A stretch of 64,000 nt of DNA from NCBI GenBank assembly GCA_020201525.1, contig JAIVGO010000094.1, forward strand, positions 4,126 to 68,125, read 5' to 3'. This document shows, one piece after another, positions 676 to 64,000 of the stretch (position 1 is the stretch's first letter; every line of letters starts with the position of its first letter). A model generated the notes under the pieces. It searched no databases. It saw only the letters and a list, made by a program, of their open reading frames with translations, and was not told the DNA's origin. This stretch comes from Actinomycetota bacterium (GTDB lineage: Bacteria; Actinomycetota; AC-67). The translations under genes and the position numbers were made by a program.

Positions 676-3600
676 ATGCTTACGGATCGGAAGGACAACG
701 GCGGAATGCGACAGGGGCGTTTGGCGCGGGCAACAGCCCGGTTGGTTGCGGCGATGGTGGCCATCACCATGGGGATCCCGGGACTTCCGAGGGCGGCTGA
801 CGCGCTCAGCTTGCCGCAGCCCGACCCGGGGCCGGGAGTGTCGGCGGCGGTGGCTCTCGATGTGGGCCCGCTCGACCCGCCCGATGCGCCGTTGGTGTCC
901 CGCTCGGAGACGACCAACGTGTTCCACCTGCCGGACGGGAACGGCGCCCTGTACTCCTACGCCGGGCCCGTCAACTGGCTCGCCCCCGATGGGCGCTGGG
1001 TGCCGTTCGACACGTCGGTCATCGCCGACGGGCTCGGCCGGTTCCGGAACCGGTCGGGGCCGGTGACCGTCAGTTTCGCCGGCCTGTCAGGGGCCGATCC
1101 GCTGGTGCGGGTCGGCACCGACGCCTGGTCCGTCGGCTTCACCGCGGAGGGGATGCTGCCCACGATCGCGCTCGGCGTCGACGGCGGCACGGCCCGTTAT
1201 CCGGGCCTGGTGGGAGGCGCTGACCTCGAGTACACAGTCGGACGCAGCAACCTCCGAGAAGTCATCACCGTCCCCAACCGGGCCGCCGCCGGCAGCGGCG
1301 TGTTCCGCTTCCCGCTCCAGCTGTCCGGCGTCATCGCCCACCAGGACGCCGACGGAACCATCGGCTTCTACGACGCAGCCGGGGTGCGTCAGGCGTGGAT
1401 CCCGCCGGGGATCGCCATCGACTCCAGCGGCGATCCGGGCGCTGGGGTTCAACCCCGCAGCGGACCGGTGACGGTGAACCTGGTCGATGACGGCGTCGAG
1501 CAGGCCGTTGAGGTTCACGCCCCCCAGGCCCTGCTCGATGACCCGGCGGTGGTCTGGCCGATCAAGGTCGACCCCGATGTTCGCTTCCCCCGGGATACCG
1601 GCACCGGGTCGTGGGACTCCTATGTCCGCAGCAACTGCGGGACCTGCAACCAGACCGGCACGAACGTCGAGGCGCTCGGCGGCCAGCTCGACGCGGCCCA
1701 AGGCGGCTATGTCGCCAAGGTCGGCTGGAGCGGCGGGGTGGAGTACGACAGCTACTTCCTTTACGATCTCTCTCCGGCCAACAACCAGAACATCCTCACC
1801 GCCACCTGGAACCCTTATCTCTATCTGCAGTCGCAGAACCCGAGCAGCCGCTACGTGCTCTGGCCGGTGGCCGACCCGTACGATCCCAACACGGTGACGT
1901 TCAACACCCGCCCGAACCACTTCACCAGCGGCCTGTGCGACGGCAACAACTCGAAGTGCTACGGGCCGGGCCCGGGCGGCGTGTTGGCGCATGACATCCG
2001 CGCCTGGGTGCACAACTGGACCCACTCGGTGTGGAACAGCCGGGGGATCGTGGTGGACACCGGCGGCGACGCCACCGGCTACTGGACCTTCCTGGCCAAC
2101 GAAGATCCCACCAACGCTTCGTATATCCGGGTGGTCTATAACCTGCCGCCGACCGCGACGTCGCTGGCGCCCAACGGCGGTTACCAGGCCACGACGACCC
2201 CGCAACTGTGCGGGACGTGGACGGACCCGAACCAGCAGTTCCAGAACGACACCGGCTACATCGCCTTCTCGGTCTACAACGGCGGCGGGGGCCTGGAGTG
2301 GTCCGGGAACAGCGCCACGGTCGCCAACAACGGGCGGGCCTGCGCCACGACCGGCGGCCTCAGCCAGGGATATCACACCTGGTCCGCCCAACCCTACGAT
2401 GGCCGGGAATGGGGAGCCACGACATCGGCCACGTTCACGGTCGACACCGTCAAGCCAGGGAACGCGGCGGTGACGAGCTCGACGCACGGCGTTGAGAGCC
2501 CCCCGGGGAGCCAGTGGTACGCGGGGCGGACGGTGGCCGGCTCGATCAGCGGACCGGCCGGCGACACCAGCGGCATCAATGGCTATTCCGTGTCGATTGA
2601 CCAGTCGTCTGCGACGGTGCCCGCCGCTACCGTGAACAGCACCGGCAGCTATAGCGTCACAGCCACGAATAGCAACGACGGGCAGTGGTATGTCCACGCT
2701 CGAGCCAAGGACAACGCCGGCTGGTGGTCGGACACCGCTCGCTACTACGGCGTTCTCATCGACAGCACGCCGCCGACGGCGCCGACGGTCCCCACCAGCA
2801 GCCACGGCATCGGTGTCTGCACCTCGAACCGGACGATCACCATGAACTGGGCGCCGGGCACCGACGTCACCTCGGGGGTGCTGGGCTACTCCTGGGTGTT
2901 CAACAACGACCAGGCCGCCCGTCCCGACAACAGCGTGGAGCCGACGGGGCTGAACACCAGCGCCACCTACACCGTGCCGGTCAACGCCGATGGGACCTAC
3001 TGGTTCCATGTCGTGACCGTCGACAAGGCCGGCAACATCAACCCGCCCGGGACCGGCGATCTTGTCTACGGGCCGATCTGCATCGACAGCACCGCCGATC
3101 CGGTCACGCTCTCCCCGACGCTGCTGCCCGACATGGTGGCCCAGTCCGACCAGGTCGGCCTGGAGCAGTTCGAACCGTACAGGTCGTTCCCTCTCGGCAC
3201 CGGCACCGCTCAGGTGCAGCTGCGGTCGGGGAACCTGGTTGCCCGCTTCGAGGACACCTCGATCCCCAACCAGGGGCTGAATACCGTCATCTCCCACGTC
3301 TACAACTCCCAGCGGCAATCGGGCGTGTTGCACACCAACGGGCTGGGCCAAGGCTGGTCGCTGTCGATCTCCGACCTCACCGCCGGTCTGGAGGGCGTGG
3401 ACGGGGCGCTGGAGGACTTCGACCTCGCCGCGCCCATGACCACGGCCAGCGCCACTGTGGTCAACGGGGCTGGCACCATCGCCGGGTACCTGCTGGAGTT
3501 CACCGACGGGGACGGGACCACCCACCGCTTCATCCGCAAGGGAGGCGTGGGTTCCCGTTGGGATTCCCCGCCGGGCGTGAGCCTGCGGGTGCGGGAGATC

Positions 3601-6600: not shown

Positions 6601-8187
6601 GCCGTCCGCCAGCCCGGCGCCACCGGGACCACCACCGGCACGGCCAGCTTCGCCTACGACGCCATGGACCGGCTGACCAGCTGGGTCGCCCCCTTCGCCG
6701 AAACGGACGGCTCCCAGAACACCACCTACACCCTCGACGACGGCGGCAACATCACCGAAGAGCAAGCCAACACCGGCACCACCGCCGGGAGCGGAGCCAT
6801 TCGCACCGACATGCTCAACACCTACACGACCGGCCGCCTCACCCAGCGGACCACTAACATCTACAACTCGCTGGGCGTGCTCACTGGGACGGTCTGCAAC
6901 ACGCTGCAGTACGACGCCCTCGGCGAGGAAACCCGCCGCTACACCGACCAGCCCCTGTTGGGCTGCGGCGGCGCGGCCAGCGGCACCTGGGTGGACACCA
7001 CCTACGACCCCGCCGGGCACACCGCCACCGCCGACGACAGCCGGGTCGGAGCGGAAATCACAGACCCCCACGTCCGCTACACCTACGACGCCATCGGCCG
7101 GACCATCGCCAGCACCAACCCCAACCGAAGTGGCTCCGCCAAGACCACCCTCTACTTCTCCCAAGCCGGCGGCGACACCCTCGCCGAAGAAACCGACGGC
7201 ACCGGCCAGACCATGATCCGCTACCTCGACGATGACAACGGCGCCGCCATCGCCCAAGAGTCCTACCGCACCTCCACCGGCAGCCGAACCGCCACCTCCA
7301 CCTGGAACTGGCTCCTCCACGACACCGCCGACAACGTCGCCACCACCTGCGACGACAGCGGCGCCGTCCTCCAACAAGCCGCCTACGACCCCTACGGCCA
7401 ACCCAAAACCGGTGGGGCCGGCAAGACCACCAACACCACCTACGGCGGGTCCTCCCTCGGTCACCAAGCCGCCCTCACCGTCCGCGACGCCAACGGCAAC
7501 ACCCGCGCCGAAATCCTCGGCGACCGCCAATACGACCCCGGAATCCGAAGATTCACCACCCCCGACACCTACGCCGCCGCCACCGCCGACCTCGCCCTCG
7601 GCACCGACACGCTCACCGGCAACCGATACCTGTTCGCCGCCTCGAACCCCGTCGGGTTCTTTGAAGACGGTCACAGTAGCGGTTGCCGCCCCGGATACAG
7701 ACGAGTGAAAGGCCCATTCGGTATCCCAGCTTGTGCTCCCAATGGGCCAAGAGGACCGATCAATATCGATCGCATTGCGAACCATTTTCTAGTCCATTGG
7801 TCGGGAGGAACGGTCCGCACATGCGGCACTAGCGGCAGTGGAAGAACGGTGGTTTGCGTCGAGGACGTTCGCCGACTTCCGAGCGCTGACAGCGGATCCG
7901 ATGCTGTCACCTACGGTCACTACATCTTCTGCTATGGCTCCTGTAACCTGCGCTACGCGCATGAGATTGTGCACGTCGGGCAGTGGGAAAGGTACGGCGA
8001 CTATTTCGGTATCAGATATCTCCGGGAAGCCCGGAAACACGGTACGAAGTGCCGAAACAAGTACGAGCGAGAAGCGTACACGGCACCGGGTGGCGGCCCG
8101 TGCCCTTACGAAACACACGAACCCCCGCACGAGAATACCGAGCCTGATCCACGCATCAACAGAGGCTATGGCCGGGCATCCATTTGA
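676..8187 (+). CDS. Secreted RHS/YD-repeat polymorphic toxin (RHS1), 2503 aa. Order: signal peptide, shared N-terminal module, DNRLRE-like domain, FN3/Ig-like domains, YD-repeat shell, RHS core, C-terminal toxin domain.
   Basis: N-terminal signal peptide (MRQGRLARATARLVAAMVAITMGIPGLPRAADA). Dozens of YD repeats (YTYDGNGQL, YSYDPVGRVTQ, YSYDPLNRL, YSYDGEGNQTER). RHS core near the C-terminus (LTGNRYLFAASNPVGFFEDG). Variable tail with HEIVHVGQ. The 2232-aa antisense ORF is a high-GC artefact. Confidence 0.85.
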   Translation: MLTDRKDNGGMRQGRLARATARLVAAMVAITMGIPGLPRAADALSLPQPDPGPGVSAAVALDVGPLDPPDAPLVSRSETTNVFHLPDGNGALYSYAGPVNWLAPDGRWVPFDTSVIADGLGRFRNRSGPVTVSFAGLSGADPLVRVGTDAWSVGFTAEGMLPTIALGVDGGTARYPGLVGGADLEYTVGRSNLREVITVPNRAAAGSGVFRFPLQLSGVIAHQDADGTIGFYDAAGVRQAWIPPGIAIDSSGDPGAGVQPRSGPVTVNLVDDGVEQAVEVHAPQALLDDPAVVWPIKVDPDVRFPRDTGTGSWDSYVRSNCGTCNQTGTNVEALGGQLDAAQGGYVAKVGWSGGVEYDSYFLYDLSPANNQNILTATWNPYLYLQSQNPSSRYVLWPVADPYDPNTVTFNTRPNHFTSGLCDGNNSKCYGPGPGGVLAHDIRAWVHNWTHSVWNSRGIVVDTGGDATGYWTFLANEDPTNASYIRVVYNLPPTATSLAPNGGYQATTTPQLCGTWTDPNQQFQNDTGYIAFSVYNGGGGLEWSGNSATVANNGRACATTGGLSQGYHTWSAQPYDGREWGATTSATFTVDTVKPGNAAVTSSTHGVESPPGSQWYAGRTVAGSISGPAGDTSGINGYSVSIDQSSATVPAATVNSTGSYSVTATNSNDGQWYVHARAKDNAGWWSDTARYYGVLIDSTPPTAPTVPTSSHGIGVCTSNRTITMNWAPGTDVTSGVLGYSWVFNNDQAARPDNSVEPTGLNTSATYTVPVNADGTYWFHVVTVDKAGNINPPGTGDLVYGPICIDSTADPVTLSPTLLPDMVAQSDQVGLEQFEPYRSFPLGTGTAQVQLRSGNLVARFEDTSIPNQGLNTVISHVYNSQRQSGVLHTNGLGQGWSLSISDLTAGLEGVDGALEDFDLAAPMTTASATVVNGAGTIAGYLLEFTDGDGTTHRFIRKGGVGSRWDSPPGVSLRVREISSGGVVSAYEFIRPDGVIYMAENIKTTLGLSTNTWKITSIRDRRSNTVTFAYSAVVGQARLTSISHNRNGVVATLTWDATTGRLTQITSLPGVSAVDPVTGTNRSYERWVTFTYDGNGQLWKRTENAQAGSDGPRVTEYLYTNGLLTSVKDGKTPAQTTTFAYTGSGYTVQLTSLTDRRQTPQPTPKPWTFAYGIPDPSSGQQDTVVTSPVNDQVTYRTSGRAAIEPTGADRRIAGGNIIAITDAGYGPPTPGQVISEFEWTENRLTKRYQPRLVATPRGGGDPVWSYRYNDVGFLIETTEPAPNDPTRADLPTGAPIASITTKLTYLPVVAGSPDSFRYPPSCVDPAADTKTISEEGYCLAVMELSRTAADALPGTGDTARRYTDLTYNGDGTLASQTQRAKNDGTADGTNDRTTTFTYYTRGGLKTSDGPRSDVADVTTYGDTADATYGGYDRTGQPPTIKDAQNKTTTVTYSPYGPVQKTIDRDGRVTMARYDDRDNPVESVDPSGRHTTAAYDGNDNKTRQTSPRGVATTGVSDDFTTIWTYDNNDWVTQASEPGANPADARRVATTTYADDGQKLNETTPRAGSQVNYTYTPNRTLKTVDAPGQTANAPDRAVTDYSYDPVGRVTQLDRPVTNTAGERPRTTTTYTPSGAVAKQQVIANATQTQVTTYSYNAHGEVLRTDGPRTTPVTAQTSSVYDAFGEVTKTSRRIDTSRTIDSTVGYDRAGNQIQVIQPSATTAASDDLESLYSYDPLNRLSAQTKDPANPTHTVAYSYDGEGNQTERLDKASNVTVRRVSTVYNPDGTVQSEVDKDEAAGTTLAACNYPAGAGDLTTGYDADSQPLVSRSVSGTNGCAGTTTLETQTFSYAAANNWMTGSTQTLRSPENGTNYSRTEAYSYDPDGARASVTHDGLATSYGRSPAGWATTITDWRSRASTMAYFPSGATKTAQLNNATVTGTSDYQRDGAPTSLTWQAGATVLRSHTAIGYDLGGQRTAETIAVRQPGATGTTTGTASFAYDAMDRLTSWVAPFAETDGSQNTTYTLDDGGNITEEQANTGTTAGSGAIRTDMLNTYTTGRLTQRTTNIYNSLGVLTGTVCNTLQYDALGEETRRYTDQPLLGCGGAASGTWVDTTYDPAGHTATADDSRVGAEITDPHVRYTYDAIGRTIASTNPNRSGSAKTTLYFSQAGGDTLAEETDGTGQTMIRYLDDDNGAAIAQESYRTSTGSRTATSTWNWLLHDTADNVATTCDDSGAVLQQAAYDPYGQPKTGGAGKTTNTTYGGSSLGHQAALTVRDANGNTRAEILGDRQYDPGIRRFTTPDTYAAATADLALGTDTLTGNRYLFAASNPVGFFEDGHSSGCRPGYRRVKGPFGIPACAPNGPRGPINIDRIANHFLVHWSGGTVRTCGTSGSGRTVVCVEDVRRLPSADSGSDAVTYGHYIFCYGSCNLRYAHEIVHVGQWERYGDYFGIRYLREARKHGTKCRNKYEREAYTAPGGGPCPYETHEPPHENTEPDPRINRGYGRASI
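7671..8187 (+). other. C-terminal toxin (CT) domain of RHS1: predicted zincin-like metallopeptidase toxin with an HExxHxxQ motif.
   Basis: Follows the RHS core. Motif YAHEIVHVGQWERYGDY (HExxHxxQ, as I recall for the DUF4157 zincin-like family). Several Cys residues. Local GC drops visibly relative to the upstream RHS body. Confidence 0.5.
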
Positions 8188-8243
8188 TGCGTCTATTCAT
8201 CCGTTCGGGCCGGAGTTCGAGCTTCCCTCGGCATAGGAGGCCG

Positions 8244-8600
8244 GTGGGACGACATCGGCTTGGCCTGGTGGCCTACCTGCTCGGTGTAAGCATCCTGACA
8301 GCTGCCTGCATCCCTGGGGATCAGGGCAAGCGAGTTTGGGTGGTTAGTCGTTGCCCTGGCACCGTTTGGATCAGAGGCTCGGAGACTGGCAACGCGTCCC
8401 CAGCCGATCTTATGAAGGGTCCTGGTGGCGTCCGCTTGGAGCCTAATGAGCGAGAACTTTTCCCCGTCTTTGACAACGACGCTGATGGCGTGACTTTTAG
8501 CGTTTCGGCCGTTCAGGGCGACATCGGTGGGTTGACTACCGTTCCTCATTCAAATGACAAGGTCCGCACGCTCGAAATCCAGGGCTCAATGTGCCCTTGA
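8244..8600 (+). CDS. Putative cognate immunity lipoprotein for the RHS1 CT toxin.
   Basis: AGGAGG at 8235-8240, then GTG at 8244. N-terminus VGRHRLGLVAYLLGVSILTAAC has a lipobox (LTAAC). Lies immediately 3' of the RHS stop. GC is lower than surrounding DNA. In-frame with the track ORF 8184-8600. Confidence 0.55.
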   Translation: MGRHRLGLVAYLLGVSILTAACIPGDQGKRVWVVSRCPGTVWIRGSETGNASPADLMKGPGGVRLEPNERELFPVFDNDADGVTFSVSAVQGDIGGLTTVPHSNDKVRTLEIQGSMCP

Positions 8601-9306: not shown

Positions 9307-9442
9307 GCCCGCGAGCGCCCGGTGACGCGATTCGCTCTACAAGGGACGAACGTTCACACTGCGTTGATCCTGTCGGAGGTCGGGGCAGATGGGGTATCGA
9401 ATACGCTCTTGCACCCGCGCTCGACCGAATGGAAATAGAGGA

Positions 9443-16313: not shown

Positions 16314-16344
16314 ACCGAGCCTCCATCAGACCCAGGGCGGTTCA

Positions 16345-20984: not shown

Positions 20985-23900
20985 ATGCGCCGTTCGTCGC
21001 CCTCTACTGCCGCGACTCGCACCTCTCTGCACCGGGCACGCCGTTGGGCCGTGCGACCTACGGCGTGGATGATGGCCTTGAGTGTGATCACAAGTGGTCT
21101 GTCGATCGTGCCGGCGGTGGCAGCCGGCGCCGAAGCGAAGTCGGGAACGGCGGGGACGACGACCTTGGCCAATGTGCCTTCCGAACCGGCTGCGGCGCCG
21201 ACGGCTCCGGCGGTGCCTCTCGGCGACTTTTCGAATCCTCCGTCGCGGGAATCCAACAAGTCGTCCATGACCACTTCGGCTGGGCCGACGATCCGCGTCC
21301 AGCCGGCGGCCGACCGATTCAGGCCGGGGAAGAGCGTCGAGCTGCCGGAGCTCCGCAAGGCGAACGAGAAGACGTTCCTCAATCCGGACGGGAGCCACAC
21401 CACCCAGGTCTTCAACGCCCCTGTCCACGTGCTCGATTCGTCCGGGAAGTGGGAGGATCTCGACACGACGCTGACCTCCGCGGTCGGCGGACGGTTCAAG
21501 TCGAAGACCACCCAGGCCCCGGTGGATGTAGCCGCGAAGGGCACCGACGCGGTCTTGGGTCGCCTGACGGTGGACGCCAACCACAGCGCCGCCTTCGCCA
21601 TGGCCGGCGCGCGCCAGGTTCCGGCCACGGTGGCAGGCGACGTGGCGACCTACACGGGGATCCAGCCGGGCGTGGATCTGCGTCTCGCCAGCCATCCCGA
21701 CGGGCTCAAGGAGGATTTGGTCCTGGCGTCGAAGGATGCCCCGGATCATTTTGTCTTCCCGTTGACCCTGAAGGGCTTGACCGCTTCCATTGATAGCACC
21801 ACGGGCGACGTGGTCTATCGCAACAGCGCTGGGACGGAGGTGGCCCGGACTCCTCACGGGTGGATGGCAGACTCCAACGTGGATCCCAAGTCGGGCGAGC
21901 CGGCCCGCAGCTTCGGAGTGGTGTATCGCTTGGTCGACATCGGCAAGGGCCACGTGGCGCTCGATGTGCAGCTCGACCGGGCGTGGCTCCAGGCCCCGGA
22001 ACGGCAATTCCCGGTGACCGTTGACCCTTCGTACTGGCTGTCGACCACGCTGTCCGACGACACCTATGTGCAACGACCGTTCGTCAACAACCAGGGGTTT
22101 TGGTCGACGGACAGTGTGCTCAAGGTGGGCCATGCCGACGACCCGGGCCTTCCGTCGGACAACTTGGCCCAGTCGTTCATGCACTTCGACGTCTCGGGAC
22201 TCAACGGCAAGCAGATCGTGGATGCCAGCTTCTACGCCTACGAGACCTGGTCATGGTCATGTGCTGCTCGGGGCGTCGGGCTGTACCGGATTACCCAGCC
22301 GTGGTCGACGTCGGACTCGTTCATGCAGAGCTTCCCCGGCGCCAGCTATGCCGACCAGGTGGCGTGGGGATCGTTCGCCATGGGCCACGACGCCGGCTGT
22401 CCGGCCGGCTGGGCGTTTTGGGACATCACCCCGACGGTGACGAAGTGGACCAATGGGACGTGGGACCAGTACGGGCTGATGCTGAAGGTCGACTCTGTCT
22501 CCGAGGGCGACGTCTACGCCTGGAAGAAGTTCGCGTCGTGGAATACGGCGCTTGCGACCAGTTCCTGCGACATCCCCGGCAACCCGAACCCCGAAGATCC
22601 CTACCTCACGAAGTGCATTCCCCACATCAACATCGACTGGCAGGACCCGGCTCCGCCGAATAATCCCCCGACTGCGCCTGCGATGGTGACGCCGCCCTCG
22701 CCCGGCAACGGCACGGGCATCGGCACGCTGACGCCGCAGCTGCAGGTGTCGTCGACCGACCCGGACGGCGACGCCATCAGCTACCGGACCGAGGTCTCGA
22801 CCGATCCGGGGTTCGGGTCATTCACGGCCGTGTGTGACTGGGGCGGCCCGACCTGCAATCCGACCGGGCTGGCTTGGAACCGCACCTACTACTGGCGGGC
22901 CTGGTCCCGCGACGCCACCCACACGACGAGTCCCGCCGCCGTGTGGTCGTTCTCGACCCCGAACGCGGCACCCAGTCCGGGCACGCCGTTGACGCCCCCC
23001 AACGGCAACGGCATCACCACGCTCATGCCGATCCTGGAAGCCAACGCGGGATCGGATCCCAACAACGATGCCTTGCGCTACTGGTTCCGTCTCTCCGCCG
23101 ACGACGACCCCGAGGTCCACACCCTGTGGGATTCCGGCTGGCTGAACTCCTCCCAGTGGGTGATCCCCGGGATTCCCAGCGCGAAGGTCGTCAACCCCGC
23201 GCAGCCGACCACGCCGATCCTCAAGGACGGCGCCACCTACTCGTGGAAGCTGTACAGCACCGACGACATCAATGGGCAGGTCCAGTCAGCGACCTGGAAG
23301 TTCAAAGTCAGCTTCCGCCTCGGTGACCAGCCCTCCAGCCCGCTCGACGCGGTCGGGCCGGTCACGGTGAATCTTGCCACCGGCAACGTGGTCGTCAAGG
23401 CCGCTACCCCGACGATGACGACGGTCAGCGGCCCGATGGGGATCAGCTTCACGTACAACTCGCTCGCGCCGGCGGCGAGCACTCCGGCGCTGCCCCAGGG
23501 CTGGTCGATGTCCCTCGACGACGAGGCCACCCTGGCCTACTCCGGTCTGCTCACCCAACCCAACGGTGAAAGCATCGTCCTTGTCAGCCCGGACGGCGGG
23601 ACAAGCGAATACCGGCGGACGGGGACGGCGACGTCGACCTGGGCGCCGCTCAACGCCGACGACAGCGCGGTCGTGACCCAGAGCAGCAACGGTGACTACA
23701 TCGTCCAGGGCGGCGACGGCATCACCTACCGCTTCGGCCCCGACGGCCAGGGCAACTGGGTCCTGCAAGACGCCACCCAGGCAGCCGACGACCAGGGCCA
23801 CCCGAGCAGCCTGTTCTCGCACTGGGACACGACCACCGGTCGTCTCAGCAGCGTCGAGGATCCGGTCTCGCATCGCAGCATGAACCTGATCTATGGCGGC

Positions 23901-28919: not shown

Positions 28920-29201
28920 ATGCAGACCAGACGGGGCGATATCTTTGGCTTCAGCATCAGCGGCGTCATCGTTGCTATCCCCATCTTCATCATGGTGGCC
29001 GCGAACAAGCGTGCACCGGATTTAGCTCCGCTAGTTGCCGCCCTGGGAGGATTCGCTGGGATCATGGCTTCTGGCCTGGCATGGGCCAGCCTTGGCCGCC
29101 CTCCTGCCGAACGGCTGTTACGAGACCGGCCTGGCCTTGCGCTCTTGTGCTTCGCCCTTTTCGTCGTTGGCCTGATTCCTACAATCGTCTGGAGTAAATA
29201 G
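28920..29201 (+). CDS. Small three-helix membrane protein, putative cognate immunity protein for the RHS2 CT.
   Basis: The ATG directly abuts the RHS2 TAA. 93 aa with three hydrophobic segments (ISGVIVAIPIFIMVAA / LVAALGGFAGIMASGLAWASL / LALLCFALFVVGLIPTIVW). GC is lower. Confidence 0.6.
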   Translation: MQTRRGDIFGFSISGVIVAIPIFIMVAANKRAPDLAPLVAALGGFAGIMASGLAWASLGRPPAERLLRDRPGLALLCFALFVVGLIPTIVWSK

Positions 29202-37533: not shown

Positions 37534-37644
37534 ACCCGGCTCCCCCCGCAAAGTCCCCAGCCGTTTAAGAAAGAGTTTCGCAGGTGACCCCTCAGTTGTC
37601 AGGCCAGCCGGGTTGGGGAGTTCTGTATCACAACGGTGTAAGTC

Positions 37645-45241: not shown

Positions 45242-45244
45242 GCC

Positions 45245-51800: not shown

Positions 51801-51963
51801 CAAGAAGTCCGAGTAGCGACGAAGCCTTGTCCCGCTTAGTTCTCTGGCCTCCGTGTTCGGTGGCCCAGAGATTCCTTGAGAGTCGAGACTCTGGATCGGC
51901 GGCGAACAGCCTCGGCTAAATCGTCGGTTGCACAAGTGTGCCTATGAATGCGGCGATGGCCGG

Positions 51964-52816: not shown

Positions 52817-55800
52817 GTGCGTCGAGAGGAACGGGTTGGATTCGTGAGATTCTTTACGGCAGTCCGGAAGACGAAGCGGAGCCGTCGGGCTGGCGGCCTC
52901 CTTGCCGTGTCGTTGCTTGTCAGCGCGTTGCCGGCGGGCGCAGCCGACGATGGGACCACTCTGGCTGTCTCTGCCGCCTCGACCGCTCCTGCCGCAGCGG
53001 TCGGCGCCAAGCCCTTCATCGGCTTCGTGCCAGGGCAGAGCGTCGAGGACGTTTCGAAGCGAACGGCGCAGTCAAAGACCTTCCGGAACCCCGACGGGAC
53101 CTATACGGCTCAAATTTCGTCCGATGTCGTGCACTACTGGACCGGCACCGGATGGGCCGAGATCTCCAACCGGCTCGTGCCCGACGGGCCCGGCAGTTAC
53201 CGCAACGAGGCCAACTCCTTCACCGTTCGTTTCGGGGCAGCAGACGTCGTGCTGGACACGCCGCAAGGCGCAATGAACCTGGGGCCGTCCGGCGCGTCGT
53301 TGCGTGCTCCCGTGCTCGACCCAGTGGGCGAGACCGTCACGTACGCGGACGTATGGCCCGGAGTGGATGTCCGCTATCGAGTCGTCAGCACCGGCGTAAA
53401 AGAAGAAATCGTGGTCCGGCGGCGGCCAACGATCAGCCAATTTCCGTTCCGCCTCCAAGGCGCGGCGATGACCGTCCAGGCCGACGGCAGCGTGGCCATG
53501 GGCGGCGCCTTCGCCGGCACGTGGAGGATCCCCGCACCGCAGGTGTTCGCCAAGGACGGACAACTCATCAGCAAGACTGGCGCCCGCTTCACCGTGACCG
53601 GAAACACCATCACCCTGAATGTCGACCGCAGCTGGCTTGCCGGTCTGGACGAGACGAAAGATCTGCCCGTCGTTCTCGATCCGCCAATCCTCTCCGTCGG
53701 GTCGACGACCGGCCGTTCCTACGAACGCCTCTCTTCGGACACCGACTACGGCACGTGCGACAGCATCCCCACGCCCTGCCAGGTAATGGTCGGCATCCGC
53801 AACACCACGAACGGCTGGCACCCCTGGCGGTCGGTGCAGTACTTCCCCTACGAGTCGCTGTACGGCAAGCAAATCCTCAAAGGACAGGTCATCCTGCAAG
53901 CTCGCCAGGAAGGCACGCCCGACCCGAAGGTCATGAAGATCTACGGCGACGACGTCAACGGCCAGTTCGGCGGCGTCTGGAACTGGGTGAACCTCGGCGG
54001 CTTCATCGCCTCCGGTACGGCGCAGGACGACACGTTCATCTACGACGAAGCCGAGAGCGGACCGCACCCGCTGGCCGACTACTACCAGGATCTCGTCAAC
54101 CGCAACCTGCCCGGCATGGCGATCAAGTTCCTCGGGGACGAAACCCCGGGCAACTCAACGTTCAAGCGATTCGCCTGGTTCCAGCTCCAACTCACGTACA
54201 ACACGCCGCCGAATGTCCCCGACACACTGAGCCAGACCTGGTCGTCTGGGTTCACCGCGCCGGAACTCTCCGCCCGGTTCACCGACCCCGACGGCGACAA
54301 CGGCAACGTCGACTTCGAAGTCACCCGCCCGGACGGCTCGAAACTCCTCGTGCCGGTCGGGACGACCAACGGAGGGACCGCCCGGACCACGCCCGCTGTG
54401 AGCGCCGCCGGCACATACTCCTGGCACGTCCGAGCCTGGGATGGAAGGACCCTGTCCCGCAATCCCGAATGGTCGAGCGATCAGACCTTCACGGTCATTA
54501 CCGACGTCGCCCCGAACGTTCCAGACAACCTTGCCCCTGACAACAACGCGGCCAGTGCGTCAGCCCCCACGCTCTCCGCCCGGTACACCGCCAACGATGG
54601 GCAAGGCGGATGGATCGAGTTCGACCTCGGCAGTGAAGACCAGGTCATTTTAGTGCCCGCTGCGCACAACCAGACCGTGAGCTTCACTCCAGACACGCTC
54701 ATGGAGGGGAACTATTCCTGGCGGGTTCGAGCCACTGACGGAACCTACGAATCTGCTTGGACGCCATGGCGCTACTTCAACGTGAGAAAAAACCTTGTTT
54801 GGTACGAGAACTTCACCGGTAACAATGGCGATCTTTGGAACAGCTCCCGCTGGAGCACCGGGACGAATAGTCTCACGAGGACAGTCGATATTCAAAGTAA
54901 CGAAGGGCGGCTCTACGTTAACGGCTCCTCGGCAGGGGCGACCGCTCGACAGGCCGGCTCGAACATCAACCTTGCGGATATCGACGTCGCGTTGACGTTC
55001 CGGTTCGAAAACACCAACACTCGAAGCTTCCTGCGGCTCAGGGCACGAGACTCAGGCACGAACGCCTATCGTGTCGAACTCCGCAACGACTCCACCACCG
55101 TCAAGTTGCAAAACATTCTCAACGGCGTATCCGGCGCGATCACACAGTTCACGTACAACCCCGATGGCCAAGCCGGCTTCGATCCTGGAAGCCATCGCCT
55201 GCGTGTTCAGCTCACGGGCAGCACCGTCCGAGTGAAAGCGTGGCCGGCGAACAGCGCCGAACCAGACACCTGGCAGATCGATCGGACCGATACGTCCGTC
55301 ACCGGCCCAGGCGTCCTGAAGATCGACCACAATTACGACACCGGATCACGCAGCATCTACCTCGATGACGTGGCGGTCGCGAATCTCCAGGTCCAAGGGG
55401 GAACTCAGCCAGAGCTCAAGATGTGGGATGAGTATCCCAACCACGGGTACGCCGACATGGCCAGAGTGACGGACGGCGGAACCCTCCTTGGGTTCACCTC
55501 CGACCGATGCAAGGCGGTTGAAAACGACCTCATCGCCCAAGTCAAAGCGACCACGGAAGGAAGCCAACCGGAATTCCGGGGTGCCTGGCCGAGCGGACTA
55601 ATCCTGCACCGAGGCTCCGACTGCATCGGCCGGGTCGGCGACGGCGTCCATATCACGCTCGACTACATGACCGACAGCGAATGGACCCAGTCGGGTCCGG
55701 GGCATGGAAAGAACGGTGGCCATGTCCACTCCTTCCTAGCCGCCCCAGAATGGTGCGATGTTCACGGATACACCAAGATCAACGGAAGATGCGGCTTGGA

Positions 55801-56029
55801 ATTCAGCCGGGTCCACCTCAAGGAATCGAAGTTCGACACCGTGTACCCGAATGACACCGTCAGGCGGAACGTTCTCATCCACGAGACCGGCCATGCTTTC
55901 GGCTTCAAGGACGACTGCTCCACGAAGGCGATCACCAATGACGGATCGTGCGGTCTCCCTCAAGGCTGGACATCCATCGACAGGCGAGAGATGCGGGATC
56001 ACATCTACACCAACTTCCCGTACCCGTGA
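52817..56029 (+). CDS. Secreted multidomain protein, 1070 aa. Order: shared N-terminal module, DNRLRE-like domain, two FN3-like domains, LamG-like domain, C-terminal snapalysin/M7-like metzincin (HExxHxxGxxD).
   Basis: Signal peptide. N-module homologous to the RHS N-termini. VRVKAWPANSAEPDTWQIDRTD LamG-like motif. C-terminal VLIHETGHAFGFKDDCS. The C-terminal third is lower in GC. Confidence 0.8.
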   Translation: MRREERVGFVRFFTAVRKTKRSRRAGGLLAVSLLVSALPAGAADDGTTLAVSAASTAPAAAVGAKPFIGFVPGQSVEDVSKRTAQSKTFRNPDGTYTAQISSDVVHYWTGTGWAEISNRLVPDGPGSYRNEANSFTVRFGAADVVLDTPQGAMNLGPSGASLRAPVLDPVGETVTYADVWPGVDVRYRVVSTGVKEEIVVRRRPTISQFPFRLQGAAMTVQADGSVAMGGAFAGTWRIPAPQVFAKDGQLISKTGARFTVTGNTITLNVDRSWLAGLDETKDLPVVLDPPILSVGSTTGRSYERLSSDTDYGTCDSIPTPCQVMVGIRNTTNGWHPWRSVQYFPYESLYGKQILKGQVILQARQEGTPDPKVMKIYGDDVNGQFGGVWNWVNLGGFIASGTAQDDTFIYDEAESGPHPLADYYQDLVNRNLPGMAIKFLGDETPGNSTFKRFAWFQLQLTYNTPPNVPDTLSQTWSSGFTAPELSARFTDPDGDNGNVDFEVTRPDGSKLLVPVGTTNGGTARTTPAVSAAGTYSWHVRAWDGRTLSRNPEWSSDQTFTVITDVAPNVPDNLAPDNNAASASAPTLSARYTANDGQGGWIEFDLGSEDQVILVPAAHNQTVSFTPDTLMEGNYSWRVRATDGTYESAWTPWRYFNVRKNLVWYENFTGNNGDLWNSSRWSTGTNSLTRTVDIQSNEGRLYVNGSSAGATARQAGSNINLADIDVALTFRFENTNTRSFLRLRARDSGTNAYRVELRNDSTTVKLQNILNGVSGAITQFTYNPDGQAGFDPGSHRLRVQLTGSTVRVKAWPANSAEPDTWQIDRTDTSVTGPGVLKIDHNYDTGSRSIYLDDVAVANLQVQGGTQPELKMWDEYPNHGYADMARVTDGGTLLGFTSDRCKAVENDLIAQVKATTEGSQPEFRGAWPSGLILHRGSDCIGRVGDGVHITLDYMTDSEWTQSGPGHGKNGGHVHSFLAAPEWCDVHGYTKINGRCGLEFSRVHLKESKFDTVYPNDTVRRNVLIHETGHAFGFKDDCSTKAITNDGSCGLPQGWTSIDRREMRDHIYTNFPYP

Positions 56030-56095
56030 TAGTGGCCGGCCTTCTAGCGGAATTCAAACGAACCGAAGCAGAAGCCGATTCGGAGGTAACCGGTA

Positions 56096-57561: not shown

Positions 57562-57602
57562 AGTCGTCTACCACCAGCCGTCGGTAGTTAACTCACACGC
57601 TT

Positions 57603-58626: not shown

Positions 58627-58826
58627 ACGCTGAGGTAATTTCGTCCGGGCATTCGGCTTCCAGCTTCTGGACCATTAACCGGGCGAGCCGACCGGCCCGG
58701 CTTCATGGCATTTCGGGCAGCGGGCACGCAACCGCCGCAAGGGTTCGACGAGTCCTCTCCAGCGCGTCGCAGCAGCGGCCGATCCTGCCTTTCGGCTTAG
58801 CTCCCGCACGAAGGGCCTGTTCGCTG

Positions 58827-61800
58827 ATGCGCGTTTCGCTGAAGATCTCCGTCGACTCAAGCGCTCGCCGCCCATGGCATCGGGGGCTGGTCAGCACCCT
58901 GGTGGTCCTCGTCAGCCTCGCTGCTACCAGCTTGGTCGCCGTGCCCCTGACCGCGGAAGCGGCCGACCGAGGCGACGCGCACAAGCAGATGAGCCCCCAA
59001 GAGCTCCCCGCCCTCCATTCGGACGCCCCCACTCCCAGAGCGTTGGACATCCCGCAAGGCGACTTCAGCAATCCTCCCGCCCAACACGCCGACGACGTCA
59101 GCACCGACCGCAGCGGCGTCAAGGCCGGAGCAACACTGGTCGGCCGGTCCGCGGGCAGCGAAATCTGGGACAATCACGATGGAACCTCGACCGCGGTCGT
59201 ACATGCGCGACCCTCCACGTGGGCTGATCGCGACGGCAAGCACAAAGTGATGGATAGCCGCCTGACTCGTCAGGGTGCACGCCTGAAGAACACCGGCGGA
59301 CCGGTCGGCTTCGACCTGCCAGCCGCAACAACAGCGAACGAAGTAGTAGTCGCCTCAGCCGACGGCTGGTCCTTGGGTTTTGCCATGGACGGCCTCGCCG
59401 CTGGACGAAATGGCGAAGTCGACGGAGCTTCCGTTCGCTACCGCGCGGTTCAGCCTGGCGTCGACCTCGTCGAGACCATCGAAGGCGACACCCTCAAAGA
59501 GACGGTCGTTCTAACTGAACTGCCTCGGCCCGGTAGTACCAACCGATTCCGCTTCCCGCTCACCATGAGCGGGCTGACCCCGAAAGAACAGGCGGACGGT
59601 TCGATCCGCTTCTACGACCGGGCCGGCACCGAGGTCGCCGCCATGCCGGTCGGCGTAGCGTTCGACGGTAGCGGCGATGCTGCCCGCGGTACGCAGGCCC
59701 AGACTCCGGTCCATCTCGACCTCATAAGAGTGGCGGGCCAGTGGACTGTGGAGCTTTCGGTTGACCGCACCTGGCTGTTGGATCCGAGCCGTGTCGCTCC
59801 GATCTCGATCGACCCGTCGGCGACCTTCAATGCTGGCCGCGACAACGGCTCGACTCACTCGGACGCCTTCGTCTCGCAGGCCGCCCCGACCACGAACTAC
59901 AACACGCTGCTCGACTCCGGCTCCTACGTCGACAAGGTCGGCTACGGTTCCTACCCCACCGACCAGTTCAACACCTTCTTGAAGTACGACGTCTCCGCAT
60001 TGGCCGGCAAGACCGTCAGCGCCGCCACCTGGAACGGCTACTTCCTCTCCGCCGCCGCCTACCCCAGCACCTACGCCCTCACCCAAGCGGCAGCGTCGTG
60101 GACCGACTCCACCTTGACCTGGAACAACCAGCCCGGCGCCACGGGCTCGGCTGCCACGGGCTCCGTCACTGCCGCGAATCAATGGGCGACAAAGGACATC
60201 ACCGGCTGGGTGCAGGGCTGGCTGGCCACGCCCACTTCGAACAACGGCATCAGGCTTGACAGCAATGGCACCAACGCCTACCTGCGCCTAGCCGCTATGG
60301 AGCAGGCGGCGCAGGACTCGTATATAGCGGTCACCTTCGCGAATACGGAGCCGTCCGCACCGACCGCTGTACAGCTGACACCGGCCGACCAATCGACCGT
60401 CATGTCGCTCACACCGACGCTCACATCGGCGGCGATGACCGATGCCGAGGGCGACGCCGTCCAGTATTGGTTCCGAATCGCCACGGGCACCGACGGGCAG
60501 ACCGGACAGTTGATCAACTCGGGTTGGCTCACCACCCCGTCGTACCAGGTTCCGATCGGTGCCTTCCAGGACGGCATGACGTACCACTGGGAGGTCTACA
60601 CGCGAGACGCCTGGGCCACCGGTCCTCCCACCACCGTCTCCCCCACGGTGTCCCTGACGGTGGACCAGGGGCTAGGGCGAGGCGCCAGCGACAACGTCGG
60701 ACCGGTCTCTATAAACCTAACCAACGGCAACGCCACGGTCAGTGTCGCGTCACCGAGCTTCCAGACGCTCGGGGGATCAATCGGGCTCAGCTACACCTAT
60801 AACTCGCAGACGCCAGTTCCCAGCGGCCTCTCCGGCTCGTACTACCCCTGCACCGCAGCCGCAGGTACCGGCTCGGCCGGTCCGACGTTCCCGGCCACGG
60901 GCACGCCTCCGGCCCTCGTCCGACCGGACACCACTCTGAACTTTGCGTGGAACGCCACGTCTCCTTTGCCGGCACCGGGACCGAACGCCGACCCGACGAA
61001 CTTCTGTGTCCGGTGGAGCGGATATGTCACCGTGCCTACGACGTCGACGGCGTGGTCGTTGAGCGACACCCATGACGGCGGAGCTCGCATCTACCTGAAC
61101 AACAACTTCACGACGCCTTACGTCGATGCGTGGTCGAATTCGTCCGGGACGGTGACCGCCAGCGGTGCAGCCGTCGCGCTCACCGCCGGCGTGCCCACAC
61201 CGATCACCATCGACTACTACCAGAGCGACACCGCCGCCAACTTCTCGTTGTCCGTAGCCGGTCCGATCACCGGCATCGTCCCGTCCAGCTGGCTCACGCC
61301 GAGCTCATCGTCTGTCGTGCCCAGCGGCTGGTCGGTCTCGACCGGCGGAAGCCGCACCCTGGCCTACACCGCCGCCAAGGTTGGCAACGACTCGTTCGTG
61401 CTCACCGACCCAGCGGGGGGTGCGCACGAGTACCGCAAGGTAAACAGGGCCTGGAAGCCCACCAAAACTGAGCAGGCCGTCGTCACGCAGAACTCCGACG
61501 GCACGTTCACGGTGCTCGCGCCCGACGGCCTGAACTACTTCTTCAGCACTGCCGGCAAGCTCAGCTCGGTCATGTCAGCCAGCGATGACAGCAACAGAGC
61601 GGCACCGACCTACTCCTTCGACCCTACGAGTGGCAACGTCACCGCCCTGACCGACCCGCTCAGCGGCCGCGCCCTTAGCCTGACCTACGCCACCACCCCC
61701 AACCCGTGTGCCACCCCGCCCAGCGGGTTCGACAGTTCCCCGCCGGCAGGCATGCTCTGCAAAGTCTCCTATCCCGACGGATCGGTCACGAATCTTTTCT

Positions 61801-64000
61801 ACATGGCTGGGCAGCTCGGCCGCATCGTCGATCCGGGATCTTCCTCGATCGGGTATCCGACGACGGACTTCGCCTACGACTCGAGCGGTCGGCTCACCAA
61901 GGTCCGCGACCCCCTCGGATACGACAAGGTTCAGACGAGTCCTGGCACGCTCGACAACGATACGACCCGCACGGTGATCGCCTACGACACCGGCGGGCGG
62001 GTGACCACACTCACCGCACCGGTCCCGAACGCTGGAAGCACCCCCGCCTTGCCCGCCCCGCAGCGCACTTACTCCTACCCCACCGCGGGCGAAACCCAGG
62101 TCAACGTCATCGGGTTGACCCCGTCGAGCGGCTTTTTCCGCAAGGTGACCTTCGACCCTGGAACGGGAGTTCTCCTCTCGGACACGGACGCGACGAACCG
62201 CACAACCAGCTACGAGTACGACACTGACGAGCGACTCGTCATCACGACGGACCCAGGTGGGCTCAAGACAACCACGGTCTACAACGCCCAGGGACAGGTG
62301 AGCGACACCTACGGTCCCGCACCGGCCACCTGCTTTACCGGCCAGACACCTAACGGCGCCTGCACCAACCCGGCCGTGCCGCATGCCACCAGCGCTTACG
62401 ACGAAGGAATCAAGGGGCTCGCCGCCGTCTACTGGAACAACCAGACCCAGACCGGCCCGGCGATCATGCACGCCACTGGGGTGGGGGACTCCACCGGCGC
62501 GCTCAACAAGGACTGGGTCGGCGGGACGCCATTCGACTCGAACTGGACATCCGCCTGGTCCGGGCGATTCACCGGCGACATCACCTTTCCGCAGGTCGGT
62601 ACGTACAGCATCGCTCTCGACAGCGACGACGGCGTCCGGCTCTACCTGGACGACTCCAGCTCGGCGCTGATCGACTACTGGCGCGACCACCGAGGCTTCT
62701 CCCCCAGCGCCACCTTCACCAACACCGTCGCCGGGTCACGCCACCGCATTGACATTGAGTACTACGACAACACGCAGGGCGCCAAGATTGGGCTGTACTG
62801 GACTCCGCCCGGCGGCACCCAAGCTCTGGTCCCCGGCGATTATCTTTCCCCGAGTTATGGGCTCGTCACCTCAACCACCGACGCCGACGGCAAAAAGACG
62901 GCGACTGAGTACAGCAACGGCAGCATCGGCCCCGAGTACGGGCTGGCGACTGCCACCGTTCAGGACCCCGCCGGACTGAACCTACGGACAAGCACGTCCT
63001 ACGAGGCGCCCGGTGCAACGGGAAGCTACCTGCGCCCCTTGACGAAGACGCTTGCGAAGAGCTCGGCACACAAGACGACCAACAGCTATTACGGCGCCAC
63101 CGAGGCCGCCCCGACGAACAACTGCGGCATTGGTTCATCGACCGTGCAGGCGGGGATGCTGAAGCAGACCGCCGATGCCGACGGCGTCACCAAGCAGTTC
63201 CTCTATGACGGCTCGGGCCGGTTGGCTGGAGCCAAATACAGTGGTGACGCCAACTGGTCGTGCACCGGCTATGACGCTCGGGGCCGGGTGACTTCGGCGG
63301 CGGATCGCAACCTCGCCTCGGCCGCTACCGACTACAGCACCGTGGGGCAAATCACCACCACTTACACCGACTCGTCGGGGATTGTCCGCTCCACCCTGGC
63401 CAAGGCCGACCTGCTAGGGCGGTCCATCTCCTACACCGACGAGCTGGGCACGAACACCCGGAGCTTGTACGACCAGGCCGGGCGGGTCACCGCGATGTAC
63501 CGGACGTTTGCCGGCGCCAGCGAAGGTCAGTTGAACGGTACGGTCTACGACGACGCCGGCCGGCCGACCAGCGTCACCGACTACACGTCTGGCACCGGAC
63601 TAACGACGATTTTCGCTTATGACACCGCAGGGCGGTCGCAGACGCTGACTCGGCCCAATGGAGTCGTCACCACGGCCACCTACGATCCCAACCAGGGCCG
63701 CCTCACCGGCCTGTCCAACAAGGCCGCGGGCACGACGGAACTCTCGCCCTGGACGTACACCCTGAGCGCTGCAGGACGCATTGCCTCCGAAACGACAACG
63801 GGTCGGAGCCGCTCGTTCACGTACGACGGTGCCGGTCGCCTCGTAACTACCAGTGAAAACAGCGGGACGACCATCCGCAACTACGCCTACGACGCGAACA
63901 CCAACCGCTGCGCGAACACCACCAGCTGCACGACCCCGACGTTCACGTACGACAACGCCGACCGAATCACCGCCTCGCCTTACGCCAGCGCCTACGGCTA
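58827..64000 (+). CDS. Secreted RHS/YD-repeat protein (RHS3), 5' portion. Order: shared N-terminal module, DNRLRE-like domain, FN3-like domains, two PA14-like domains, YD repeats. Continues beyond the window.
   Basis: ATG at 58827, MRVSLKISVDSSARRPWHRGLVSTLVVLVSLAATSLVAVPLTAEAAD signal peptide. N-module homologous to the RHS1/RHS2 N-termini. PA14-like segments (HDGGARIYLNNNF...ITIDYYQS; DSDDGVRLYLDD...IDIEYYDN). YD repeats to the last base (FTYDNADRITASPYASAYG). Not in the ORF track because it lacks an in-window stop. Confidence 0.8.
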   Translation, partial: MRVSLKISVDSSARRPWHRGLVSTLVVLVSLAATSLVAVPLTAEAADRGDAHKQMSPQELPALHSDAPTPRALDIPQGDFSNPPAQHADDVSTDRSGVKAGATLVGRSAGSEIWDNHDGTSTAVVHARPSTWADRDGKHKVMDSRLTRQGARLKNTGGPVGFDLPAATTANEVVVASADGWSLGFAMDGLAAGRNGEVDGASVRYRAVQPGVDLVETIEGDTLKETVVLTELPRPGSTNRFRFPLTMSGLTPKEQADGSIRFYDRAGTEVAAMPVGVAFDGSGDAARGTQAQTPVHLDLIRVAGQWTVELSVDRTWLLDPSRVAPISIDPSATFNAGRDNGSTHSDAFVSQAAPTTNYNTLLDSGSYVDKVGYGSYPTDQFNTFLKYDVSALAGKTVSAATWNGYFLSAAAYPSTYALTQAAASWTDSTLTWNNQPGATGSAATGSVTAANQWATKDITGWVQGWLATPTSNNGIRLDSNGTNAYLRLAAMEQAAQDSYIAVTFANTEPSAPTAVQLTPADQSTVMSLTPTLTSAAMTDAEGDAVQYWFRIATGTDGQTGQLINSGWLTTPSYQVPIGAFQDGMTYHWEVYTRDAWATGPPTTVSPTVSLTVDQGLGRGASDNVGPVSINLTNGNATVSVASPSFQTLGGSIGLSYTYNSQTPVPSGLSGSYYPCTAAAGTGSAGPTFPATGTPPALVRPDTTLNFAWNATSPLPAPGPNADPTNFCVRWSGYVTVPTTSTAWSLSDTHDGGARIYLNNNFTTPYVDAWSNSSGTVTASGAAVALTAGVPTPITIDYYQSDTAANFSLSVAGPITGIVPSSWLTPSSSSVVPSGWSVSTGGSRTLAYTAAKVGNDSFVLTDPAGGAHEYRKVNRAWKPTKTEQAVVTQNSDGTFTVLAPDGLNYFFSTAGKLSSVMSASDDSNRAAPTYSFDPTSGNVTALTDPLSGRALSLTYATTPNPCATPPSGFDSSPPAGMLCKVSYPDGSVTNLFYMAGQLGRIVDPGSSSIGYPTTDFAYDSSGRLTKVRDPLGYDKVQTSPGTLDNDTTRTVIAYDTGGRVTTLTAPVPNAGSTPALPAPQRTYSYPTAGETQVNVIGLTPSSGFFRKVTFDPGTGVLLSDTDATNRTTSYEYDTDERLVITTDPGGLKTTTVYNAQGQVSDTYGPAPATCFTGQTPNGACTNPAVPHATSAYDEGIKGLAAVYWNNQTQTGPAIMHATGVGDSTGALNKDWVGGTPFDSNWTSAWSGRFTGDITFPQVGTYSIALDSDDGVRLYLDDSSSALIDYWRDHRGFSPSATFTNTVAGSRHRIDIEYYDNTQGAKIGLYWTPPGGTQALVPGDYLSPSYGLVTSTTDADGKKTATEYSNGSIGPEYGLATATVQDPAGLNLRTSTSYEAPGATGSYLRPLTKTLAKSSAHKTTNSYYGATEAAPTNNCGIGSSTVQAGMLKQTADADGVTKQFLYDGSGRLAGAKYSGDANWSCTGYDARGRVTSAADRNLASAATDYSTVGQITTTYTDSSGIVRSTLAKADLLGRSISYTDELGTNTRSLYDQAGRVTAMYRTFAGASEGQLNGTVYDDAGRPTSVTDYTSGTGLTTIFAYDTAGRSQTLTRPNGVVTTATYDPNQGRLTGLSNKAAGTTELSPWTYTLSAAGRIASETTTGRSRSFTYDGAGRLVTTSENSGTTIRNYAYDANTNRCANTTSCTTPTFTYDNADRITASPYASAYG

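Follow-up and report, generated by a model that had tools for sequence, protein, structure and literature searches.

The 64,000 nucleotides analysed here (hereafter "the window", from contig JAIVGO010000094.1 of an Actinomycetota bacterium) hold five giant genes, all present as open reading frames (ORFs) on the + strand within 64 kb, whose products, called RHS1 (676), RHS2 (20985), P1107 (32666), P1070 (52817) and RHS3 (58827), share one kind of N-terminus ahead of differing C-terminal parts. We consider it probable that all five are signal-peptide-bearing multidomain extracellular proteins of a monoderm member of the Actinomycetota, belonging to the "DNRLRE domain-containing"/WapA-like family and anchored to a glycan or the wall for display by their "head", the term used throughout for a ~230-aa (amino acid) N-terminal module together with a DNRLRE/CBM96 domain, both situated behind the signal peptide. 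RHS1, RHS2 and RHS3 can be classed as Sec-dependent RHS toxins of the WapA-like kind, and P1107 and P1070 as members of the head-bearing family that lack RHS; the head itself, as far as sequence comparison goes, belongs to a protein family that is already catalogued and does not constitute a new secretion system, and it is reasonable to read it as a unit common to these proteins for display or targeting.

That the five proteins begin with a signal-peptide-like stretch followed by a homologous module had been proposed in the initial annotation of the window, and both a five-way alignment and BLASTP bear this out, placing the homology well past the signal peptide and the length of the module at ~230 aa. 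When the five N-termini are aligned with MAFFT, conservation extends over the whole module, with 16 invariant columns that include an N-terminal DG and the terminal P...DP. Comparison of the excised modules by BLASTP (E-values scaled to a 1e8-residue database) gave E 3e-31 to 2e-10 for seven of the ten pairs, over ~220-245 residues and at 26-34% identity, the outlier being P1070, with an E of 1.6e-4 against RHS1, 3e-4 against RHS3 and 0.11 against P1107; identity among all five modules is 25-34%. When all six reading frames of the window were scanned with the module profile, exactly five copies came up, all of them on the + strand: 889..1587 in RHS1 (aa 72-304, a predicted DUF7948-like β-supersandwich), 21333..22046 in RHS2 (aa 117-354), 32774..33466 in P1107 (aa 37-267), 53039..53692 in P1070 (aa 75-292, the sole copy to exceed the Pfam DUF7948 threshold) and 59130..59834 in RHS3 (aa 102-336, of which residues 108-336 were modelled).

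Ahead of the module, all five N-termini are signal-peptide-like when assessed by eye and by hydropathy, in that the first 45 residues contain a positively charged N-region and, behind it, a hydrophobic window of 15 aa (mean Kyte-Doolittle values of 1.85-2.62; Ala-rich sites were read from the sequences), and inspection of the N- and C-termini revealed neither a lipobox nor a C-terminal LPXTG/sortase motif in any of the five proteins. Behind the module, the DNRLRE-like domain initially ascribed to all five is found in four of them (RHS1, RHS2, P1107 and RHS3), the corresponding segment of P1070 being degenerate. The curated cut-offs are 34 bits for NCBIfam NF033679 and 26 bits for Pfam CBM96 (PF24517), and NF033679 is matched past its cut-off in RHS2 (69.1 bits, E 4.6e-19; 22047..22619, +), P1107 (48.3 bits, E 1.2e-12, with CBM96 at E 2.7e-7; 33467..33982, +) and RHS3 (83.9 bits, E 1.3e-23, with CBM96 at E 6.7e-14; 59847..60335, +). 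The DNRLRE/CBM96-type domain of RHS1 (aa 310-488; 1603..2139, +) has no match with the curated NCBIfam/Pfam DNRLRE/CBM96 models and was recognised, at E 3e-29, with an enriched DNRLRE profile made from family members from which the RHS1 relatives had been left out. The P1070 segment at this position (53699..54226, +), the identity of which is unproven, has no NCBIfam or Pfam match and reaches an hhalign probability of 66% over 64 columns; P0132, a 48.5% identical relative of P1070, shows DNRLRE-like sequence at the equivalent position by eye. A five-sequence profile of the domain also matched PDB 7vbo (CBM96) at E 3.8e-9, and the founding CBM96, the one characterised case, reportedly binds alginate as a targeting module in an alginate lyase.

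The module can be connected to an existing family as well. Pfam DUF7948 (PF25778, gathering threshold 27 bits) is passed by the P1070 module, which scores 32.5 bits and aligns with positions ~103-201 of the 214 in the model, and is matched under the threshold by that of RHS2 (13.4 bits), while the RHS1, P1107 and RHS3 modules have no match to PF25778. The module alignment, when compared with the protein P0003 (tagged PF25778.2), was aligned end to end over 217 columns with an hhalign probability of 99.4% and an E of 6.2e-22, and PF25778 and PF24517 stand together in the precomputed annotation of some Bacillus relatives of the Bacillus sp. BP-3 locus L097 (see below). Because the P1070 module passes the threshold, the alignment matches a DUF7948 protein from end to end and Bacillus relatives are annotated accordingly, the module is to be regarded as a divergent branch of DUF7948, a family without an assigned function whose name was not found in the literature searched. 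Only two of the 30 aligned family modules match PF25778 at E<=0.01, and the P1070 match covers the model in part only; the actinobacterial branch therefore seems to be largely unmodelled by Pfam.

As for the fold, the RHS3 module was predicted by AlphaFold2, with a 30-sequence alignment, to be all-β (predicted local distance difference test, pLDDT, 94.2; predicted template modelling score, pTM, 0.88), and the predicted fold is a galactose-mutarotase-like β-supersandwich. There is no solved structure of a module family member, and a Foldseek comparison with solved structures gave no match at E<=1e-3, with TM-scores of at most 0.51. The galactose-mutarotase-like domains compared (those of aldose 1-epimerase, LacZ domain 5, the C-terminal domains of heparinase II/III-type lyases, YidC P1 and GLMP) do not have catalytic residues in common with the module, which is a stand-alone N-terminal unit here and no accessory domain of an enzyme. 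The supersandwich fold is mostly met with in carbohydrate-active enzymes, where glycoside hydrolases and polysaccharide lyases have it as an accessory domain, and the AlphaFold2 prediction is thus of the carbohydrate-linked kind for which a structural check had been suggested at the outset.

Judging by profile matches, the head is very widespread in Gram-positive bacteria, and the module is spread over no fewer than five phyla. To gauge the size of the family, 1.84 billion cluster representatives were searched exhaustively with HMMER, in place of a word-indexed protein search that had given just 4 and 9 short matches with the module alignments; the module profile matched 15,487 representatives at E<=1e-3, 10,012 at E<=1e-10 and 1,197 at E<=1e-30. 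Among the best 150 of the 15,487, the module starts at a median residue of 90 (5th-95th percentile 5-151), that is, nearly always directly behind the leader, and a weak five-sequence profile places a DNRLRE-like domain right after the module in 69 of the 117 relatives with >200 residues beyond it. Pfam scans of nine mid-sized relatives recovered PA14, FN3 arrays, phospholipase A2, GDSL lipase, FG-GAP, an LHH nuclease toxin and DUF6531 with RHS as cargo behind the head, and RHS-type repeats are present in at least 37 of the 45 relatives of at least 2200 aa; the presence of one leader on RHS and non-RHS proteins alike, as noticed initially in the window, is hence repeated across relatives with varied cargos.

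A nucleotide-level survey gave a similar picture. The module alignments lack a conserved 7-10-column stretch, for which reason the motif WL..P.R.[YFW]P[VI]..DP was chosen, back-translated and scanned over one genome per species, yielding at least 120 loci; among the matches listed, the module was confirmed by a hidden Markov model in 118 of 120, mostly from Actinomycetota, with Clostridia, Bacilli, Patescibacteria, Chloroflexota and Dormibacterota also represented, and with weaker matches from Bacteroidota and a Phycisphaerae metagenome-assembled genome (MAG). Locus L097 of Bacillus sp. BP-3 shows the complete WapA layout, with the module (129 bits), DNRLRE, FN3-like repeats and RHS repeats. 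The RHS3 head, when searched against PLSDB with tblastn, matched 84 plasmids (34 from Bacillus, 25 from Streptomyces, the rest from others), and 27 of the 30 plasmid matches listed are annotated as "DNRLRE domain-containing protein", one as an RHS core protein, two being without a listed feature; each of the two plasmids inspected (one Bacillus, one Streptomyces) has a ~2,000-aa gene between insertion sequence (IS) elements, and a SUKH immunity gene lies downstream of the head-bearing gene in the Streptomyces one. Several head-bearing genes were also observed in one Flavobacteriales MAG (loci L057 and L064) and in one Actinomycetota MAG (L026 and L112), and plasmid NZ_CP027023.1 has three places matching the head; multi-copy head-bearing arsenals are not unique to the window.

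Beyond the head, the three RHS proteins of the window all carry RHS/YD repeats past the cut-offs of PF05593 and TIGR01643. RHS1 (2503 aa; 676..8187, +) continues with immunoglobulin (Ig)-like domains (Big_13), DUF6531, RHS repeats and a C-terminal region; RHS2 (2644 aa; 20985..28919, +), identical from an internal start codon to GenBank MCA1832871.1, a "DNRLRE domain-containing protein", with DUF6531, a PA14-like domain, RHS repeats, an RHS core and a hydrophobic C-terminus; and RHS3 (at least 1724 aa; 58827..64000, +, running past the window end without a stop codon) with two copies of PA14 and RHS repeats. The RHS core model TIGR03696 (cut-off 32.5) scores 44.7 bits at aa 2433-2507 of RHS2 and only 21.6 bits, under the cut-off, in RHS1. 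What follows the weak core of RHS1 (aa 2330-2503; 7663..8184, +) contains HEIVH and is a putative toxin, and the Gly/Ala-rich, hydrophobic end of RHS2 (aa 2508-2644; 28506..28916, +) may be a membrane-acting one; neither C-terminal region has a Pfam match. Two small ORFs are positioned like immunity genes: one of them overlaps the RHS1 stop codon (8184..8600, +), has a lipoprotein-like N-terminus and no Pfam match, and is a candidate immunity gene of RHS1, and the other, of 93 aa, directly follows the RHS2 stop codon (28920..29201, +), has three hydrophobic segments and no family match, and would be the candidate immunity protein of RHS2.

The two remaining proteins have no RHS/YD repeats (PF05593, TIGR01643). 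P1107 (1107 aa; 32666..35989, +) carries, after the head, two Ig-like repeats, a β-domain and a glycoside-hydrolase-like domain, and P1070 (1070 aa; 52817..56029, +), identical from an internal start codon to GenBank MCA1832889.1 ("hypothetical protein" LC750_09240), carries Ig-like repeats, a β-domain and a metzincin-like domain. The hydrolase-like domain of P1107 (35153..35818, +) is Rv2525c-like, matching PDB 1sfs at E 7.6e-18 over 222 residues, and the C-terminus of the protein scores 24.9 bits with PF08924 (Rv2525c_GlyHyd-like), just under the cut-off of 27.2; a megablast of P1107 against plasmids gave no match. The C-terminal putative zinc metalloprotease of P1070 (55427..56026, +) contains HETGHAFGFKD at aa 1022, in keeping with HExxHxxGxxD, and scores 20.9 bits (E 4.6e-4) with Reprolysin_5, under its cut-off of 27, the AlphaFold2 pLDDT of this region being below 50. 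The ~200-aa domains ahead of the enzyme parts (34541..35170, +, in P1107 and 54782..55426, +, in P1070) are homologous to each other (E ~1e-18 by phmmer) and are "LamG-like" in name, the fold being unverified: no LamG-type Pfam match was obtained, the best one being the Sialidase N-terminal domain at E 0.049, and AlphaFold2 with a five-sequence alignment gave the "LamG" plus protease region of P1070 a mean pLDDT of 43.7, with only a β-rich core at 66-88. Of the cargo types named in the initial annotation, the RHS repeats in three proteins, the glycoside-hydrolase-like domain (by way of 1sfs) and the metzincin motif have accordingly been retained, and LamG has not. A 152-aa ORF just downstream of P1070 (56096..56554, +), with a signal-peptide-like N-terminus and no family match, could, speculatively, encode a secreted inhibitor or immunity partner of P1070.

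Much of this layout has been seen before. The WapA of Streptococcus suis is an RHS toxin with a Sec signal, an N-terminal domain still described as unknown and DNRLRE, the N-terminal region being assumed, and its N-terminal fragment predicted, to be cell-wall-binding (PMC12704120). RHS1, RHS2 and RHS3 fit the WapA type (Bacillus WapA, WapA-CT1 of S. suis), in which a signal peptide, an N-terminal domain, DNRLRE, spacers, RHS and a variable C-terminal toxin are followed by a small downstream ORF; the window proteins differ in having Ig-like, PA14 and DUF6531 spacers, in being without an RHS region in two of the five cases, and in being without the LysM and the adjacent SecF-like and SrtB genes of the S. 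suis type. B. subtilis WapA itself presumably carries the module as well. The pairing of DUF7948 with CBM96/DNRLRE_dom (PF25778, PF24517/NF033679) is the same one as in the Bacillus relatives, and RHS2 had already been named a DNRLRE protein in RefSeq.

The more general idea of a constant domain placed after the signal peptide and followed by variable effectors was formulated in 2012, for MAFB-N, Microscilla-N and APD1/APD2 (Zhang et al. 2012, PMC3482391), and it was suggested there that MAFB-N/APD-type domains serve to anchor effectors at the surface of the cell or to gather them into clusters. These domains resemble the head in being globular post-signal-peptide domains common to proteins with different C-terminal parts, and APD1/2 also in that the cargos include ordinary enzymes in parallel, not just swappable toxin cassettes; MAFB-N/APD domains are, by the same account, lineage-specific and near-identical between paralogues, whereas the window head spans phyla and is 25-34% identical. 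MAFB-N-type systems further have a lipobox or, upstream, a conserved MAFA-like partner gene for a surface-anchored protein, and the head has neither (118 loci; five termini). The architecture had been presented initially as undescribed, with the proviso that the module should not turn out to be a ubiquitous known domain or one already known on secreted proteins; as the module is a divergent DUF7948, the proteins carrying it are routinely named "DNRLRE domain-containing" and the S. suis WapA layout has been published (PMC12704120), this is precisely what it has turned out to be, and the claim of novelty therefore falls by its own terms.

The manner in which such proteins might work can be outlined as follows. 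Led by the signal peptide, the chain would pass the membrane unfolded, by the general Sec pathway; the head, emerging first, would fold outside the membrane and bind a cell-envelope glycopolymer, holding the protein non-covalently on the wall of the producer; the Ig/FN3-like spacers would push the cargo outward; and the RHS proteins would then deliver their toxins in a contact-dependent manner, with P1107 and P1070 presumably performing local hydrolysis. Non-covalent anchoring is inferred because CBM96 is said to bind carbohydrate in one case, because of the fold class of the module, and because of published reasoning on Sec-delivered toxins and the predicted wall binding of the S. suis WapA N-terminal fragment (PMC12704120). 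N-terminal carbohydrate-binding domains of Sec-delivered polymorphic toxins are assigned to anchoring on the producer wall in the 2012 survey (PMC3482391).

Several points weigh against anchoring and display by the head. The carbohydrate- or wall-binding role of the module would follow from a predicted fold class and from the neighbouring domains, and the similarity is at the fold level only, with 5-14% sequence identity to the structural neighbours; supersandwich domains also occur in non-glycan settings, such as YidC P1 and GLMP. For RHS1 and RHS2, no Pfam family backs the proposed toxins and immunity genes, and an SRR motif of P1070 could hint at Tat export. No gene recurs beside the module-bearing genes of the 118 loci, yet these were 8-kb loci, mostly filled by the giant gene itself. 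Finally, the interaction of S. suis WapA with SrtB was mapped to the DNRLRE plus LysM part and not to the N-terminal domain (PMC12704120).

A rather doubtful extension of anchoring by the head is that the DUF7948-like supersandwich and CBM96 together make up a general Sec-coupled surface-display platform, mainly of monoderms (Actinomycetota, Bacillota, Chloroflexota and Patescibacteria), which would itself hold WapA-type toxins and non-RHS nucleases, lipases, proteases and wall hydrolases by way of a conserved wall glycopolymer; if true, this would define an effector class independent of RHS.

The strongest competitor to anchoring on the producer, unlikely as we consider it, is that the head is an adhesin, which would bind the glycans of competitor or prey cells, or those of a polymeric substrate, and bring the cargo to its target with no anchoring on the producer whatsoever. 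CBM96 is a substrate-targeting module in the alginate lyase case, PA14 domains, which are usually carbohydrate-binding, are also present in RHS2, RHS3 and relatives, and the fold class is typical of the accessory domains of glycoside hydrolases and polysaccharide lyases, all of which would suit an adhesin; PMC3482391 allows, too, that some lectin-like domains of polymorphic toxins may increase target-cell contact, while assigning N-terminal domains such as these to the producer wall. The position of the head tells against it, strictly beside the signal peptide and thus closest to the membrane of the producer and furthest from the C-terminal toxin, as does the fact that one head is conserved from phylum to phylum for cargos, and presumably targets, of very different kinds; WapA-type proteins, moreover, are wall-associated (PMC12704120).

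Less probable still, and quite improbable in our view, is that the module acts as a pro-domain for export, folding or processing, recognised by an accessory factor such as a sortase, a SecDF-like protein or a protease, or cleaved as an intramolecular chaperone, and the mark of a distinct secretion route. The WapA locus of S. suis does have a SecF-like protein and an SrtB sortase that contribute to delivery, although SrtB bound the DNRLRE plus LysM part (PMC12704120), and YidC P1 is among the structural neighbours of the module. The window itself encodes three proteases, a trypsin-like one (17254-18720, -), a ClpP-like one of the serine dehydrogenase (SDH) type (30383-31372, -) and an S8 subtilase (44009-45241, +); a processing role is conceivable for them, but none adjoins a head-bearing gene. 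The N-termini of all five proteins are of the classical signal-peptide-like kind, and the co-occurring secretion or processing gene for which the initial annotation had proposed a search was found neither at the 118 loci of 8 kb nor upstream of the five genes. With overlapping ORFs removed from the neighbouring genes, among which out-of-frame ORFs of the GC-rich DNA had predominated, the largest neighbour cluster remaining comprises nine loci and looks like an Arg/Pro-rich off-frame artefact; the genes directly upstream of the five are different in each case, with none in common, and alignment of the five upstream regions revealed no common DNA motif. With no conserved partner gene, the signal peptide and the Sec pathway would therefore suffice for export, and a dedicated secretion system is unlikely, given that there is neither a conserved neighbour at these loci nor shared upstream DNA and that all five have signal-peptide-like N-termini.

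That the five genes arose by recent in-genome duplication, with the head kept and the cassettes swapped as in the diversification of polymorphic toxins, is hardly credible and was rejected, since, for all that five copies lie on one strand within 64 kb with recombinase and transposase genes between them and that P1107 and P1070 have the same post-spacer β-domain, the sibling modules are far less alike than each of them is to relatives in other metagenomes (87% identity for RHS1, 67% for P1107, 51% for RHS2, 47% for RHS3 and 46% for P1070) and no DNA is shared upstream. With siblings 25-34% identical against 44-87% for outside proteins, the copies are anciently diverged, old family lineages that have accumulated on the region; "paralogous", as they were first called, is thus right as to homology and wrong if taken to mean recent duplicates.

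Anchoring on the wall of the producer by the head consequently remains the reading that we prefer, and it bears on a matter that is poorly understood, namely how Sec-exported contact-dependent toxins are held and presented in Gram-positives. The pairing of the module with CBM96 is found on both RHS toxins and ordinary hydrolases, is very common, and extends over several phyla and many plasmids, and the head is a concrete candidate, amenable to testing, for what anchors or displays such proteins. The module profile is, in addition, a better handle than the current Pfam model for Sec-dependent effectors in Actinomycetota.

The surroundings of the five genes deserve some description as well. The GC content of the window is high (61-74% per 2 kb), and the five genes sit in an island or plasmid-like stretch where genes of mobile elements abound. 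Such genes and fragments are scattered among the five large ones (13963-15991, +; 16162-16581, +; 32120-32584, -; 45238-45780, -; 57832-58626, +) and comprise overlapping IS3-like (HTH_21 with rve) and IS30-like (HTH_38 with rve) ORFs, the C-terminal end of a Tn3 transposase, an N-terminal piece of a resolvase and two phage-type integrases, of which one is short. That the region is part of a conjugative or mobilisable element, be it a plasmid or an integrative and conjugative element, is suggested by a relaxase of the TrwC type carrying an AAA_30 helicase domain (E 5e-60; 37645-40608, -) and by a DUF4913 gene (48082-48564, -).

Genes reminiscent of defence and of toxin-immunity systems are interspersed, too. 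A 143-aa ORF just upstream of RHS2 (20322-20753, +) matches, at E 2e-14, just the C-terminal half (model positions 45-98 of 100) of the TIR-like domain of Thoeris ThsB and may be a truncated defence gene. The window also has a ParE-family toxin gene (11312-11833, -) and a stand-alone immunity-type gene of the SUKH-1 (SMI1/KNR4) kind (46144-46785, +), which adjoins none of the five large genes and may be an orphan immunity gene. Three β-propeller-like proteins are encoded between the large genes (9389-10909, +; 36268-37551, -; 56533-57561, +), their weak matches being PD40/WD40, BNR/sortilin-like and Vgb-lyase-like. Two long ORFs have no Pfam match, one of 675 aa (40501-42528, +), which lies in a lower-GC stretch (~0.61), and one of 715 aa (49788-51935, -), which has a GC content at third codon positions (GC3) of 0.89 and adjoins the upstream region of P1070. 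The RHS-repeat regions (4001-8000, 24001-28000 and 58001-64000) show, on the + strand, a strongly negative GC skew (to -0.22) and a positive AT skew (to +0.34), the likely cause being the one-sided choice of amino acids in the repeats rather than replication.

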